This document shows positions 378-3,523 of a DNA stretch of 64,000 nt, in pieces (the first letter of the stretch is position 1; the number at the start of each line of letters is the position of its first letter). Source of the stretch: Klebsiella phage KP13-26; the sequence record OP617743.1. The stretch is one strand, 5' to 3'. A program made the translations under genes and the position numbers. The notes under the pieces are model-generated. The model was not told the DNA's origin. It did not search any database and worked only from the letters and a program-made list of their open reading frames with translations.

Positions 378-593
378 ATGCCAAACATGAGTTATTGTAT
401 GTTCGAGAACACATCGAATGATATGCAAGATATCATCAACAAGATGTATGAAGATGATTTCACACCTTCACAGCTATCCCCACGTGAGCGTAGAGCCTAT
501 GATGCTCTCTGGGAACAGGCTGAGGCAATCCTTGATCGTCTGAGTGAAATTGAAGCAATGGAAGAAGCGGAGGAGGAAGAAGATGAAGATTAA
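378..593 (+). CDS. small acidic hypothetical protein
   Basis: ORF in the track (339..593). The more likely start is ATG 378, preceded by AAGGAG. The C-terminus is a run of E/D. Confidence 0.4.
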   Translation: MPNMSYCMFENTSNDMQDIINKMYEDDFTPSQLSPRERRAYDALWEQAEAILDRLSEIEAMEEAEEEEDED

Positions 594-1476
594 TGTTATT
601 GACCAGTGGGGTCACGATAATGATATTCCAGTAAAGGTGTTCACCTTCTCCGGTGGTGAAGTGCATGTGAAGATTGATATGGAGGCTTTCAAATCTTCTT
701 TCATTGACTTAACTACTATTCAAAAAGTAGAAGTTCACCAAGATATCCGTTCCTCAGATGATTTTATGGCTGTGGTAATGGTGAAGGATGCTTTGGACGA
801 AATCTTACGATTCAATCCAAAACCGATTGAACTGTTTTCCCTATACGTTCCGTATGCACGACAAGATCGTTACTGCGAGAAAGGAGAAGCCTTTGGTGTG
901 AAATCTTTCGCTCGTCTTCTGAACAGCTTGGAGTTCTCTCGTGTAGTGGTGGCTGATCCACACAGCGAAGTGACCCCAGCAGTGATTACCAATCTGGATG
1001 CCATTCCTCAAGATGAGATTGCTTTCCATGCTTTGAAATGGAAACTTCGTATGGAGCATTTTGAGTTGGTTAGCCCAGATGGTGGAGCATTGAAGAAAAT
1101 CTTCAAACTGGCTAAACGTATGGGGCTTCCTGTGCATTGTGCAGATAAGATTCGTGATACGGCTACTGGAGACATCATTCGCACGGATATCAGTGTGCAA
1201 GACTTCCACGGTGCAAACCTTATGATTGTGGACGATATTTGTGATGGCGGGCGCACGTTCATTGAGCTAGCTAAGGTACTTCGTGAACGCAATGCTGGGA
1301 AGATTGAATTATATGTTACCCACGGTATTTTCTCTAAAGGTGTAGATGTGTTTGATGGGTATGTTGACTGCATTCACTCATTTAATGTGTGGGACAACAA
1401 TGTGCAGGATACAAACATAAAAGGTCTTCTGGTGATCAATCAGGAAGAAGTACAACGGCAGGTTATTTCTAAATAA
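583..1476 (+). CDS. Prs-family ribose-phosphate pyrophosphokinase (PRPP synthetase-like; could be an ADPR-pyrophosphate synthetase of the NARP1 type)
   Basis: ATG 583 follows the RBS aggaggaaga. The protein aligns along its length with E. coli Prs (FSGGEVHVKI / VVMVKDAL / YARQDR / VVADPHS / VDDICDGGRT, a PRPP-binding loop). Confidence 0.8.
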   Translation: MKINVIDQWGHDNDIPVKVFTFSGGEVHVKIDMEAFKSSFIDLTTIQKVEVHQDIRSSDDFMAVVMVKDALDEILRFNPKPIELFSLYVPYARQDRYCEKGEAFGVKSFARLLNSLEFSRVVVADPHSEVTPAVITNLDAIPQDEIAFHALKWKLRMEHFELVSPDGGALKKIFKLAKRMGLPVHCADKIRDTATGDIIRTDISVQDFHGANLMIVDDICDGGRTFIELAKVLRERNAGKIELYVTHGIFSKGVDVFDGYVDCIHSFNVWDNNVQDTNIKGLLVINQEEVQRQVISK

Positions 1477-1486
1477 GGAGAAACTC

Positions 1487-1690
1487 ATGAAAGTTAAAGT
1501 TCAATATGTTGGCCCAGGTACAGAATCAGGCTTCTGGAAGACAGAAGATCTGACCATTGGTAAAATTTATGATGGTGAGCTTGAAGATGGTTTGGTTCAT
1601 CTTCATGATGATGTAAACTACCTCATCACACGAGCAGTGAAAGGTTTGGCTGTAGACCCTTGCGAGGAATATTTTGTAATCGTTGAATAA
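1487..1690 (+). CDS. hypothetical protein
   Basis: 67-aa ORF with RBS aaggagaaactcATG, tightly packed after the prs-like gene. Confidence 0.35.
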   Translation: MKVKVQYVGPGTESGFWKTEDLTIGKIYDGELEDGLVHLHDDVNYLITRAVKGLAVDPCEEYFVIVE

Positions 1691-1696
1691 TAAGTG

Positions 1697-1725
1697 TTGA
1701 CTTTGTGGAGAGGATGAATTAATCT
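1697..1725 (+). promoter_or_regulatory. promoter candidate TTGACT-N17-TAATCT
   Basis: ttgact 1697-1702 and taatct 1720-1725, upstream of the Nampt-like gene. Confidence 0.35.
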
Positions 1726-1759
1726 TCTCCCATCGAAACAAACATGAAAGGAGAAATAA

Positions 1760-3523
1760 ATGGAAATTTTTGCACCGTTTGCTGCTGATTGGTATAAACC
1801 TGGTCACAAGCCGATGTACAACCAGAACACAAAGCTGATCTTCTCTAACCTGACACCACGTAATGACAAAAACTTTGCTCATTACGCTGATAAGAACGCT
1901 CGTGGCGTTATTGTCTTGGGTCTGCGCCGCATGGTAATGGACTCAATGGTTGGAATCTGGAAGAAATTCTTCAAGATGAAGCGTGAAGCTGCCGTGAAGA
2001 AATTTGCTCGTATGTCCAAAAACGCACTTGGCGCTGCTGCACCATCAGCAGAATGTTGGGGTGAACTTCACGATCTGGGTTATCTGCCAGTTGAAATCCG
2101 CGCTCTGCCGGAAGGTATTCTGTCACCGATTGGTATTCCGGTGTATACCATCCATAACACCGTAGAGAAATTCTTCTGGGTGACTAACTACATCGAAACA
2201 CTTATGTCAACCGAAAGCTGGAAAACGATCACCAACGCAACCGCTGCGTTCCAGTATAAGCGTGTGGCAATGTCCTACGCCCTGGCAACCTGTGACAACG
2301 TGGATCACGTTAACTTCCAGTGTCATGATTTCAGTCTGCGTGGTTTGTCCAACATAGAAGACGGGTATAAGAGTGGCATCGCTCACTTAGCGTCGTTCAC
2401 TGGTACAGATAACATTCTGGCTATTGAAGCTGTCCACGAATACTATGGTATTGATGACGACCAGTTTGTAGCTGGTAGTATCCCTGCTTCTGAACACTCA
2501 GTGGCAACTACCAATATCAGTCGTATCGTAAAAGACTTGGAAGAGCACTTCCCTCACTTAGCAGGGGATGTAGATGGTCTTCGTTATCTGGCTGAGAAGG
2601 AATTCCTTCTGACTTTCATCCGAGACATTGTGCCGGAAGGTTTCTGCTCTTATGTTGCAGACTCTTACGATTATTGGGCTGTGCTGACTAGTATTCTACC
2701 GGAACTGAAAGAAGAAATCATGATGCGTAATGGTCGTTTGGTTGTTCGTCCTGATTCTGGTGATCCGGTGAAAGTTGTTGCTGGTTATTATGTAGCAACA
2801 CAAGATGAATGGGTGAATAACTCCGCAACTGTACCTGCGATTGAAGCAGTATTGTTCAGGAACGGTAAATATGTGAGTATGGAGACTTTAGCCAAAGATA
2901 CTTCTTGGATGCGAGATTCCGAAGGTAACGTTGTAGATTTTAATGCGTTAACTGGTGATGAATTCTCAGACTTTGTTCCAGAACATGAAATCAAAGGTTC
3001 TATCCAGATCCTGTGGGAAATCTTCGGTGGTGAAGTGAATAACAAAGGCTACAAAGTGCTGGATAGCCACATCGGCATGATTTATGGAGATTCCATCACT
3101 GTTAAACGTGAAATTGAAATCCTGAAACGCTTGAAAGCAAATGGTTTTGCTTCTTCAAACATCGTATTTGGTGTTGGTAGCTTCACCTATGAGTTTAACA
3201 CTCGTGATACCTTTGGTATTGCTGTGAAAGCTACTGGCTGCTTCATTGACAATTACGAAATCATGGTGAGCAAAGAACCGAAAACAGATCCAAGTAAACG
3301 CTCTGCGAAAGGATTCATCAAGGTTGTTCGTAAAGATGGTATCCTGCATCAAGTGGATAACATCTCGTTTGAAGAGATCAATGATGAAGATAACCTGCTT
3401 CAACCCATCTTCCGTAATGGAAATGTGTTGATTCCCCAGGTGAACGGTCGGGACGAAGATTTCAACGATATCCGTGCTCGTCTGGATAAAGAGGTTATGA
3501 ATCATTTGATTGAAGTGAAATAG
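1760..3523 (+). CDS. Nampt-family phosphoribosyltransferase (nicotinamide phosphoribosyltransferase NadV-like, or Namat-like)
   Basis: 587 aa with the RBS aaaggagaaataaATG. Global resemblance to the NAPRTase/NAMPT family (central barrel region, GSFTYE-like and YGDSIT-like segments). Adjacent to a Prs-family gene, as in phage NAD salvage operons. Confidence 0.75.
   Translation: MEIFAPFAADWYKPGHKPMYNQNTKLIFSNLTPRNDKNFAHYADKNARGVIVLGLRRMVMDSMVGIWKKFFKMKREAAVKKFARMSKNALGAAAPSAECWGELHDLGYLPVEIRALPEGILSPIGIPVYTIHNTVEKFFWVTNYIETLMSTESWKTITNATAAFQYKRVAMSYALATCDNVDHVNFQCHDFSLRGLSNIEDGYKSGIAHLASFTGTDNILAIEAVHEYYGIDDDQFVAGSIPASEHSVATTNISRIVKDLEEHFPHLAGDVDGLRYLAEKEFLLTFIRDIVPEGFCSYVADSYDYWAVLTSILPELKEEIMMRNGRLVVRPDSGDPVKVVAGYYVATQDEWVNNSATVPAIEAVLFRNGKYVSMETLAKDTSWMRDSEGNVVDFNALTGDEFSDFVPEHEIKGSIQILWEIFGGEVNNKGYKVLDSHIGMIYGDSITVKREIEILKRLKANGFASSNIVFGVGSFTYEFNTRDTFGIAVKATGCFIDNYEIMVSKEPKTDPSKRSAKGFIKVVRKDGILHQVDNISFEEINDEDNLLQPIFRNGNVLIPQVNGRDEDFNDIRARLDKEVMNHLIEVK

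Follow-up and report, generated by a model that had tools for sequence, protein, structure and literature searches.

The locus at positions 583-3523 of the window (the whole stretch of 64,000 nucleotides, or 64 kb, of Klebsiella phage KP13-26 analysed here, OP617743.1) is very likely a NARP1 operon for the reconstitution of NAD+, as judged from the enzyme activities of its homologues. This reading, one of two offered by the original prediction, is supported by the residue signatures of both proteins, their phylogeny, the synteny of the pair, a control on the family model TIGR01251 and the listing of related phages in Osterman et al. The phage is a Klebsiella myophage of the Stephanstirmvirinae with ~97% nucleotide identity to its sibling phi1_175008, and Osterman et al. 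already include phages of E. coli from this subfamily among the NARP1 carriers. Both predicted ORFs are present in the ORF list on the plus strand: adps (583-1476), encoding a PRPP-synthetase-like protein, and namat (1760-3523), encoding a Nampt-like protein of 587 aa and starting 284 nt downstream of adps. The former product had been given as 298 aa, a figure that counts the stop codon; its length is 297 aa, or 310 aa from an alternative GTG start at 544, and the annotation of the sibling phage uses the ATG form. The genes are neighbours on one strand, as had been claimed, but they are not directly adjacent, as a conserved ORF of 67 aa (orf67, 1487-1690, +) lies in between. The Pfam search found no domain in the neighbours of the pair.

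The substrates, products and anti-defence phenotype that we assign to the operon are those of characterised homologues. By this analogy, host defence systems (SIR2, TIR, SEFIR and similar NADases) would split NAD+ into ADP-ribose (ADPR) plus nicotinamide, and Adps would move the beta-gamma pyrophosphate of ATP onto the free ribose of ADPR, yielding ADPR-PP and AMP. Namat would then swap the pyrophosphate of ADPR-PP for nicotinamide, releasing PPi and producing NAD+ directly, with no need for NMN or NMNAT. The operon would be a three-gene variant of this system, with orf67 inserted between adps and namat.

The first protein was predicted to align residue by residue with bacterial PRPP synthetase. 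The family match holds and, like that of Namat below, lies well outside chance: Adps hits phrog_619 'ribose-phosphate pyrophosphokinase' (E=1.5e-87) and exceeds the cut-offs of two Pfam models, Pribosyltran (31.4 vs 26.3 bits) and Pribosyl_synth (30.5 vs 27 bits). The implied closeness does not hold, as the protein shares only 24% identity with E. coli Prs and stays below every NCBIfam Prs cut-off, including that of TIGR01251 (106.5 bits vs 113). In the control on the latter model validated Adps proteins scored 96-119 bits and E. coli Prs 423, so that the window protein falls within the Adps range. Its identity to the Adps of ICP1, which has been validated structurally and biochemically, is 41%, and to the Bas63-like Adps 34%.

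The catalytic, acceptor, PP-loop and lid residues of Adps were compared using the feature list of PMC13586617. K189 aligns with the catalytic beta-hairpin lysine (ICP1 K185, SPbetaL1 K162), common to six Adps sequences, and the acceptor groove is retained in full (R93, H127, D166, D217, D218 and D221, corresponding to ICP1 R87, H121, D161, D212, D213 and D216); these groove residues are common to Prs as well and should therefore mark an active enzyme, not its specificity. The PP loop and lid read CDGGRT-F (ICP1 C215-S220 and F221; lid F226 in the window protein), as opposed to IDTGGT-L in E. coli Prs, and the loop is identical to that of the Bas63-like enzyme (DDICDGGRTF). Of the adenine contacts, F22 (ICP1 F18) is present, although Prs has the same residue, and the position of ICP1 F92 is occupied by Cys98 in the window protein, by Met in the Bas63-like one and by a gap in SPbetaL1 and FADO; across these aligned sequences the F92 contact is no family-wide feature of Adps. 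ICP1 F223 is conserved neither here nor in the other Adps sequences. Towards the C-terminus, where PRPS has its a11-a12 regulatory/filament module, the window protein is gapped in the alignment and falls ~14 residues short of E. coli Prs.

The phylogenetic placement suggested in the original prediction was carried out and put both proteins in phage Adps and Namat clades, with separation from the outgroups in 200/200 bootstraps. In the neighbour-joining tree of Adps the outgroup consisted of 12 canonical Prs, all from Gammaproteobacteria, and in 147 of the 200 bootstraps the window protein nested in the clade that the validated references (ICP1, SPbetaL1, FADO and the Bas63-like proxy from warpig) define. 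All 80 viral relatives of Adps scored higher against the window protein (144-644 bits) than against E. coli Prs (37-92 bits). A Namat-type gene follows downstream on the same strand in 77/80 of their loci, the other three being near contig ends, and Osterman et al. give 97% as the share of the Adps clade that has a Namat gene close by. The same authors list phi92, alia, PD06, JohannJBalmer and PaulScherrer as carrying Adps-clade proteins with 'Adps-associated' Namat (Tables S1/S2).

Namat matches phrog_448 (E=1.8e-181), Pfam NAPRTase (E=2.3e-37) and NCBIfam NF006629 (447 bits, cut-off 405). Its best match is the SPbetaL1 Namat both in sequence (PDB 9w5x/9w5w, 394 bits) and in fold (9w5x, TM 0.94 normalised to the target), and it is 74% identical to the Namat of phage alia, termed 'Adps-associated' in Osterman et al. 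The catalytic core is kept throughout (D10, Y12, F191, R194, D217, H246, R330, D332, G443 and D444, against D13, Y15, F189, R192, D215, the catalytic His, R306, D308, G360 and D361 of SPbetaL1), as are all residues of the NAM/NMN site.

Two elements of the selectivity clamp were compared. The clamp helix signature (SCH; 3176-3208, +; residues 473-483), GSFTYEFNTRD, fits the published consensus GS-X-phi1-X-phi2-X-phi3-TRD and has aromatics at positions 3 (F475) and 7 (F479); its phi2 is Glu, not Gln or Asn, and Glu also occurs in L064 and L067. Both of these adenine-stacking aromatics are missing in the PRPP-type enzymes, namely the KVP40-type Nampt (GGGLLQQLDRD) and the NadV of H. ducreyi (GAQTYQRNTRD). 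The clamp loop (SCL; the b1-b2 loop; 1862-1915, +; residues ~35-52, NDKNFAHYADKNARG) is 5 aa longer than that of SPbetaL1. Under the published rule its third residue is Arg, Lys or Tyr, and the residue that stacks is either this one or the fourth. The third residue is K37, as in the Bas63-like and FADO proteins, but it is followed by the non-aromatic N38 and, at position 5, by F39. The loop thus appears to depart from the rule, and F39 would have to stack in place of N38. The sequence concerned, NDKNF, is common to the window Namat and the phi92 group.

In the tree of Namat, the split of the window protein from three phage Nampt of the PRPP type was recovered in 200/200 bootstraps, and its nesting in the validated clade in 186/200 and 91/100. 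However, the H. ducreyi NadV (PDB 9ke8), a genuine NMN-forming Nampt, scores 348 bits against the window Namat and falls within the Namat clade in 68/100 bootstraps; because of this nesting, the clade and similarity alone are no proof of ADPR-PP specificity, and clade placement would count as a weakly discriminating feature. NARP2 (KVP40 NadV with NatV) and bacterial NadV (H. ducreyi) share the Nampt fold and the catalytic core with the window protein, and each of these proteins exceeds the cut-off of NF006629. PRPP-type enzymes differ in that they lack the clamp aromatics, are unlinked to an Adps-clade gene and need an NMNAT.

The nearness of NadV brings up classical salvage, a split NARP2-like arrangement in which a true PRPP synthetase and a true Nampt would make NMN, and a phage NadR-type NMNAT or the host NadR/PncC would finish NAD+. 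Besides the NadV similarity it can draw on the match of both proteins to Prs and Nampt family models, on a full-length NadR-type NMNAT/RNK in the sibling genome and on the finding that Namat enzymes retain PRPP-dependent NMN synthesis in vitro, at a rate about half that of human Nampt (PMC12774641). We nevertheless regard it as highly improbable: the Prs-like protein lies under all Prs cut-offs, scores like validated Adps and belongs to the Adps clade, the Namat has both clamp aromatics, and the homologous pair of Bas63 worked in a pncC/nadR-deleted host. As to the sibling NMNAT/RNK (125896-126963 of its record; PDB 9x6f 189 bits, 1lw7 133 bits), its closeness to a gene for PnuC (124463-125155; PF04973, 137 bits), ~0.7 kb away on the same strand, points to nicotinamide-riboside uptake (NARP3) and not to Nampt.

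These two genes also undo one argument in favour of our reading. The original prediction took the lack of an NMNAT in the window as slightly favouring the ADPR route; indeed none was found within the 64 kb, in a search guided by the sibling annotation, and a 'nucleotidyltransferase' at 42163-42879, considered as a candidate, had no Pfam or PDB match. The argument fails all the same, because the sibling encodes PnuC and NadR ~8-11 kb beyond the right end of the window, and by synteny the window phage probably carries this NARP3-type route too. The finding comes near to the situation named beforehand as making classical salvage sufficient, an NMNAT gene immediately outside the window; the NARP1 assignment stands on other evidence. 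NARP2, characterised by a PRPP-type Nampt together with a phage NMNAT, does not describe the window, where the clamp is of the Namat type. Biochemically, a PRPP route is possible alongside NARP1, given the in vitro PRPP activity of Namat (PMC12774641) and the sibling NMNAT.

A macro-domain gene, noticed earlier as fitting an ADPR theme, is present at 59110-59571 (-) and encodes 153 aa (Pfam Macro 26.4 bits, cut-off 22; phrog_335 'phosphatase', E=8e-51), a candidate Adpp-type ADPR-1''-phosphate phosphatase. The theme is borne out by 44% identity over the full length (E=2e-39) to Ceto gp176, a Pfam Macro protein encoded between adps and namat in the Ceto NARP1 operon, and by 49% identity to the macro protein of PAK_P4, whose gene adjoins namat; the protein also resembles TARG1/OARD1 and the macro domain of DarG. 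Against it, the gene is 55.6 kb from namat on the opposite strand, unlinked from the operon, and its family comprises 2,922 phage records, many of them without NARP1. The NARP1-AP system, in which Adpp, a phosphatase with a macro domain, is added to NARP1 (Osterman et al. 2026, preprint), thus has a homologous protein in this phage, but its definition places the macro gene within two genes of the pair, where no macro protein (PF01661, PF14519, PF20016) was found; the distal gene is the only macro gene found. By analogy with Adpp, whose experimentally tested member is from phage Gary, the distal protein may supply ADPR from ADPR-1''-phosphate.

The same gene bears on a dual use of the pair, mainly as NARP1 but with the residual PRPP-dependent NMN synthesis of Namat put to physiological use in combination with the phage NMNAT of the NadR type. 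Such an arrangement would provide both an ADPR-dependent and an ADPR-independent route, for instance against aRES-type defences, which yield ADPR-1''-phosphate and defeat plain NARP1 but not NARP2; the NMN-forming rate of Namat noted above and the combination of NARP1, PnuC/NadR and a macro gene in the sibling genome speak for it. Yet a role of the NMN flux through Namat in vivo is conjectural, Adps would supply no PRPP, and the Adpp-like macro gene already offers a way round aRES, which makes dual use very improbable. The genome is also rich in genes of nucleotide metabolism (RNR, thymidylate synthase, MazG-like and others), and the pair might accordingly be thought to raise the levels of PRPP and pyridine nucleotides for the replication of phage DNA and to have nothing to do with immunity; in view of the clade, clamp and synteny evidence for NARP1 and of the anti-defence phenotypes demonstrated for homologous operons, we find this barely credible.

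While the enzyme pair itself is ordinary for this phage group, orf67 is an undescribed addition to it, and Namat has a variable cassette. The product of orf67 is acidic (pI 4.56), its gene has an AAGGAG Shine-Dalgarno sequence and its dN/dS is ~0.12 (vs L174 and L175). Wherever its homologues were examined, at identities as low as 42%, they sat between an adps-like and a namat-like gene. Pfam, PHROG and PADLOC gave no match; the predicted fold is an SH3-like five-strand beta-barrel (AF2 pLDDT 75.9), for which the fold search returned no significant structural match. In other phages we found NDT-like and NADAR genes in this position, and macro/Adpp and RyDEP have been described there in the literature; in terms of gene order, orf67 occupies a slot where other phages carry putative ADPR-feeding accessory enzymes. 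It is a candidate third NARP1 component, presumably coupled functionally to the pathway, and as such would more likely be a binder or modulator than an enzyme.

The remark that the Nampt-like protein is about 100 aa longer than typical was correct. Compared with the SPbetaL1 Namat, which has 491 aa, neither insertion and an SCL using Arg40, it has a longer b1-b2 loop, a longer C-terminus and two insertions (residues ~253-285 and ~346-411), both common to Bas63-type Namat; the two window proteins share with the SPbetaL1 Namat and the ICP1 Adps all family-wide catalytic and ligand-contact residues, and the window Namat also has the SCH motif and the clamp aromatics. Insertion 1 (2516-2614, +; residues 253-285) is a helical hairpin, with helices predicted at 246-263 and 271-290; its identity among close relatives is 97-100%, and its counterpart in Bas63-type Namat is shorter. 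The second insertion (2795-2992, +; residues 346-411) is a structured mini-module with short strands and helices in the predicted structure (pLDDT 64-91). It shares only ~20% identity with the sibling phage, against 93-100% in the flanks, and at the DNA level its boundaries are sharp (near nt 2780 and 3000). Among 70 close relatives 18 allele types occur, with discordant pairs, and the cassette of the window is 50% identical to that of the distant Av-05/24-2-1 Namat; no second copy was found within the window. By these comparisons the cassette is a set of discrete, recombining, swappable alleles.

Among the nearest known systems, the Bas63 (JohannRWettstein) NARP1 (Osterman et al. 2024), for which Felixounavirus warpig served as a stand-in, likewise belongs to a myophage of Gram-negative hosts and has adps followed by namat on one strand; its Namat is also long (~590 aa), contains the two insertions and has Lys at the third SCL position. 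However, the identities are only 34% (Adps) and 41% (Namat), Bas63-type operons lack orf67, and their insertion 2 is longer and not polymorphic, being conserved within the group (95%, as against 98% elsewhere in Namat). The phi92-like coliphages (Justusliebigvirus: phi92, alia, PD06, PaulScherrer, JohannJBalmer) belong to the subfamily of the window phage and have the operon where that phage has it, upstream of the tRNA block, with 64% (Adps) and 74% (Namat) identity in the case of alia; they too lack orf67, with a 71-nt gap between the genes, and in the genomes sampled their Namat cassette was of a single conserved type.

It is conceivable, if rather doubtful, that we are dealing with a three-component NARP1 variant in which orf67 encodes a dedicated, undescribed partner and the polymorphic cassette marks a surface of Namat recognised or inhibited by a host factor. 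If so, the orf67 product might, for example, sequester an ADPR-derived signal, block a host NADase, or protect or couple Adps and Namat, and the 18 recombining alleles would be evidence of bacterial counter-measures against the NAD+-reconstitution enzymes themselves.

One more gene may belong to the locus. Immediately upstream, orf84 (339-593, +) encodes an acidic protein of 84 aa (pI 4.05) that matches phrog_26791 (E=2e-31) and gave no match in the Pfam search. It is kept upstream of adps in four related loci (L001, L011, L180 and L175; 69-99% identity) and is missing from the more distant orf67-bearing operons compared. Its 3' end overlaps the start of adps by 11 nt, and orf84 is possibly the first gene of the transcription unit.

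The window comes from a Klebsiella myophage of about 149 kb belonging to the Stephanstirmvirinae; its DNA at 400-3700 is about 97% identical to that of the Klebsiella phages phi1_175008 (below, the sibling phage) and KP2025, and phi92-like coliphages show about 75% DNA identity over part of namat. Four closely spaced ORFs lie here on the plus strand: orf84 (339-593), which extends 11 nt past the start of the next gene; a PRPS-like gene (583-1476, 297 aa; phrog_619, E=1.5e-87); after a gap of 10 nt, the 67-aa orf67 (1487-1690); and, after another 69 nt, a Nampt-like gene (1760-3523, 587 aa; phrog_448, E=1.8e-181), whose product also matches Pfam NAPRTase (E=2.3e-37) and, at 447 bits, exceeds the 405-bit cut-off of NCBIfam NF006629. 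The original prediction had taken the two enzyme genes for adjacent members of the Prs and Nampt families; the family assignments (phrog_619, phrog_448, NF006629) are unambiguous, but the genes are not adjacent, as a third one separates them. The residue-by-residue match claimed with bacterial PRPP synthetase is overstated: the PRPS-like protein is 24% identical to Prs of Escherichia coli, scores below every NCBIfam Prs cut-off and is, judging by its sequence, a divergent family member. Scanning 1-4800 for promoters gave no information (15 promoter-like sites versus 13.9 expected), and a terminator scan of the same region gave nothing convincing between the genes. In the orf67-namat spacer (1691-1759) there is an imperfect inverted repeat, GGAGAGGA...TCTTCTCC, lacking a T-run, which may form an RNA structure acting on namat expression.

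The two enzyme genes are very probably a NARP1 operon, in which Adps converts ADPR and ATP to ADPR-PP and Namat joins the latter with nicotinamide into NAD+. This reading, favoured from the start over Prs/Nampt, is supported by diagnostic residues, the Namat clamp motif GSFTYEFNTRD, trees and synteny, and we infer from it the presence of both activities in the window. The testable features of Adps were taken from the structural paper on the ICP1 enzyme (PMC13586617) and the original NARP1 paper; since a PDB search found no ICP1 Adps structure, the comparison was made without one. Of the Adps references, the ICP1 enzyme shares 41% of residues with that of the window, the Bas63-like (warpig) enzyme 34% and those of SPbetaL1 and FADO 26-27%. 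In the window protein the hairpin lysine of the catalytic site (K189), the acceptor-groove residues and the lid phenylalanine (F226) are all present, and its PP loop, CDGGRT, is that of the Bas63-like enzyme (IDTGGT in Prs); F92 and F223 of ICP1 are changed, being likewise variable in other validated Adps. Against TIGR01251 (cut-off 113) it scores 106.5 bits, within the range of the Adps references (96-119) and far from Prs of E. coli (423). In a neighbour-joining tree the phage proteins separated in 200/200 bootstraps from 12 canonical Prs, a narrow outgroup because the contig scan with E. coli Prs gave only gammaproteobacterial sequences (80-99% identity), and the window protein fell within the clade spanned by four Adps references in 147/200, so that its placement in the phage Adps clade is upheld. 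A same-strand Nampt-family gene lies downstream at 77 of the 80 viral loci with Adps relatives, the other three being near contig ends.

According to the structural paper on Namat (PMC12774641), this enzyme combines a Nampt-like conserved core with a selectivity clamp, consisting of a helix (SCH; consensus GS-X-phi1-X-phi2-X-phi3-TRD, adenine-stacking aromatics at positions 3 and 7) and a variable loop (SCL). The window protein retains all core residues, its SCH carries both aromatics (F475 and F479), and its SCL is partly canonical, with K37 at position 3 (as in Bas63 and FADO), then Asn38 and the aromatic F39; a KVP40-type Nampt reads GGGLLQQLDRD at the SCH position. Its best match in both sequence and fold is SPbetaL1 Namat (9w5x/9w5w, identity confirmed by a 100% match to OQ921341; 394 bits, TM 0.94 normalised to the target), and in all 200 bootstraps it stood apart from three PRPP-type phage Nampt. 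The PDB search gave about 167 bits against human Nampt, but bit scores had to be dropped as a discriminator, for the second-best match (9ke8, 348 bits) is NadV of Haemophilus ducreyi (HdNadV), a genuine NMN-forming enzyme. It is 58% identical to SPbetaL1 Namat, and 68 of 100 bootstraps put it within the clade of validated Namat, which limits the weight of the otherwise supported phylogenetic placement of the window protein: as a real Nampt nests among Namat, similarity and clade are insufficient by themselves. We therefore relied on the clamp motif and synteny. HdNadV reads GAQTYQRNTRD at the SCH position, with neither of the clamp aromatics, and may be a Namat-derived enzyme that has gone back to the use of PRPP. 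The evidence that discriminates is the clamp together with linkage to an Adps-clade gene, and the window pair has both.

The absence of an NMNAT had been put forward as slight support for the ADPR route. No NMNAT was found in the window, where a hidden candidate at 42163-42879 (annotated as nucleotidyltransferase) was rejected on present evidence, having no Pfam or PDB similarity. The sibling phage, however, encodes a PnuC transporter (PF04973, 137 bits) and a full-length NadR-type RNK/NMNAT (189 bits to PDB 9x6f, 133 bits to NadR of H. influenzae) at L179:10564-13064, which is 124463-126963 of its record, that is, about 8-11 kb past the point matching the right end of the window (coordinates inferred by synteny). 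The absence is thus unusable as evidence, and the NARP1 assignment stands because of the comparisons of Adps with Prs and of Namat with Nampt. Since PnuC and a NadR-type RNK/NMNAT make up the NARP3 pair of Yan et al. (2026), the lineage of the window probably stacks NARP1 with a NARP3-type pair. The sibling also has a Sir2-family gene (L178:16312-17190).

The macro-domain gene (59110-59571, minus strand, 153 aa), which the original prediction had fitted into an ADPR theme, is a more ambiguous case. In about 15% of NARP1 operons the macro-domain ADPR-1''-phosphate phosphatase Adpp lies within two genes of the pair, and with it the pathway can overcome the aRES defence (Osterman et al., 2026). 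The window protein is homologous to macro proteins sited in this way, being 44% identical (E=2e-39, full length) to the one encoded between adps and namat in Vibrio phage Ceto and 49% identical to the one adjoining namat in PAK_P4, and a split NARP1-AP system (NARP1 plus Adpp) with an unlinked candidate Adpp is plausible. Yet the gene lies 55.6 kb from the pair on the opposite strand, outside the positional definition of NARP1-AP, and its family occurs in 2,922 phage records, T4-like phages without NARP1 among them. This distance and distribution speak against an Adpp-like role, as does the resemblance of the protein to TARG1/OARD1 and to the DarG macro domain. A rival explanation is de-ADP-ribosylation, in an anti-DarT-like or RNA-repair-linked function.

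The gene between adps and namat, orf67, encodes an acidic protein for which Pfam, PHROG and PADLOC searches were all empty. It is preceded by an AAGGAG Shine-Dalgarno sequence, and its dN/dS against two diverged copies (dS about 1.3-1.4) is about 0.12, the flanking enzymes giving 0.04-0.19; these signatures indicate a real gene under purifying selection. A word-indexed search of 5.8 billion proteins returned only five clusters of relatives, and a profile search run exhaustively over 1.84 billion representatives yielded a few more, of 66-75 aa. In all recovered contexts (the window, phi1_175008, L011, L174, L175, L180, L181, L182-L184 and L185), down to 42% identity, the gene sits between Adps-like and Namat-like genes, and it co-diverges with them, the distant operon L182 having Adps 46%, orf67 44% and Namat 48% identical to those of the window. 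The phi92-like, Bas63-like, ICP1 and Bacillus-phage operons lack it, and no relative turned up when the ORFs of 80 other NARP1 loci were searched with a profile. The protein is predicted to fold into a five-strand SH3-like barrel (pLDDT 75.9), for which Foldseek gave only weak SH3/Tudor/PRC-barrel-like matches in PDB and BFVD (best E 0.75 and 0.02). We infer that orf67 is functionally linked to NARP1, probably as a binder or modulator. In the Logan contig L174 (SRR10097270) Adps is 84% and orf67 75% identical to those of the window and Namat only 48-50%, a mosaic which implies that recombination has taken place inside the operon, between orf67 and namat.

Other genes may occupy the same slot. 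Macro/Adpp and RyDEP genes are known there from the literature; in our survey the slot held Nuc_deoxyri_tr2 (PF15891, NDT-like) genes at seven loci (L020, L023, L025, L026, L027, L057 and L059), macro genes at three, a NADAR-domain gene at one (L020:6819-7286) and DUF7831 genes at two (L071 and L074). The slot is a hotspot for NAD/ADPR-handling accessories, and the NDT-like, NADAR and DUF7831 genes, unmentioned as NARP1 accessories in the NARP1 literature searched, are possible further ADPR-feeding enzymes. A RyDEP (RyR-domain) neighbour was considered for the window pair, but none of the flanking ORFs gave a Pfam match.

The roughly 100 extra residues of the window Namat, remarked upon in the original prediction, are two insertions relative to SPbetaL1 Namat, at about 253-285 and 346-411. 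As the Bas63-type Namat (warpig, 593 aa) carries both, the length is normal for this branch. In an AF2 model (pLDDT 90.8, pTM 0.91) the first is a helical hairpin and the second a small structured module (block pLDDT 64-91). The latter, which we call the cassette (residues 346-411, window 2795-2992), is highly variable: the Namat of the window and of phi1_175008 are 93-100% identical except at residues about 347-410, where the two differ in length and share about 20%; in the DNA the change is abrupt, with edges near nt 2780 and 3000. We distinguished 18 cassette types in a set of 70 Namat proteins whose identity to that of the window is 67% or more. Pairs of the same type are 98% identical both in the cassette and in the remainder; pairs of different types share 29% of the cassette and 89% of the remainder, and 494 pairs combine an identity of at least 95% outside the cassette with one below 40% inside. 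The reverse discordance occurs as well: the window and P0006 share 98.5% in the cassette and 93% elsewhere. In the Av-05/24-2-1 coliphages, where Namat as a whole is only 49% identical, the cassette shares 50% (E=5e-16) with the window allele. No such polymorphism was seen in the sampled phi92-like and Felixounavirus groups, and the searchable literature does not mention it. A DGR-like mechanism was rejected, as the alleles are unalignable and of differing lengths and neither a template nor a further copy exists in the window; the pattern is consistent with an exchange of alleles as modules. Discrete recombining variable modules are usually tied to molecular recognition in an arms race, and the cassette is possibly a surface module under diversifying selection, the null explanation being a tolerated, recombination-prone loop.

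NARP1 is present in about 4% of phages and is already catalogued for this subfamily, so the pair belongs to a kind that is not new: in their supplementary tables, Osterman et al. record for phi92, alia, PD06, JohannJBalmer and PaulScherrer an Adps-clade gene with "Namat within 10 genes: Yes", the Namat being tagged "Adps-associated". The enzymes of the phi92-like phage alia are 64% (Adps) and 74% (Namat) identical to those of the window. The window pair adds a Klebsiella-phage member to the pathway. It is a variant in its three-gene layout with orf67, in its polymorphic cassette and in being probably stacked with a NARP3-type pair and with an Adpp-like macro gene that lies apart from it. A small family confined to NARP1 operons and unrecognised by databases, a variable recombining module within an anti-defence enzyme, and the probable stacking of NARP1 with that macro gene and the NARP3-type pair in one lineage all merit attention and are testable by phage genetics. 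The matter is also of practical relevance, because annotation pipelines still label adps and namat as "Prs" and "Nampt", one NCBIfam model being passed by Namat and true Nampt alike, and NARP1 is expected to affect the ability of a therapeutic Klebsiella phage to beat NAD+-depleting defences.

Several other genes deserve mention. A cyclic-phosphate-processing receiver domain (cREC_REC, PF20274), mis-annotated as "nudix hydrolase", is encoded in phi1_175008 about 2 kb left of the window start (L001:17498-17839, record 47371-47712) and also at L174:998-1339, with an RNA ligase nearby, in both lineages just upstream of the NARP1 operon. An HNH endonuclease ORF (4326-4733, plus strand; PF13392, 72.5 bits) directly precedes tRNA-Leu; the sibling phage has no annotated gene at the equivalent site, which points to a homing endonuclease that is mobile. 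ARAGORN predicted 24 tRNA genes, the tRNA block spanning 4739-12048, one of them (5756-5830, plus strand) with the anticodon CTA, of the amber-suppressor type and labelled tRNA-Pyl. Inside this block, about 2.7 kb downstream of namat, lies a gene for a Ro60-like vWA protein (6247-7677, plus strand; DUF7788/DUF2828, phrog_850 "RNA-binding protein"), a family that recurs in a distant operon with orf67, there about 0.5 kb downstream of its namat (L182:4970-6427). Finally, near the right end, 62725-63930 (minus strand) encodes a 401-aa AAA/STAND-like ATPase (PF00004, 24.6 bits; nSTAND3, 22 bits, below the cut-off; phrog_2376).
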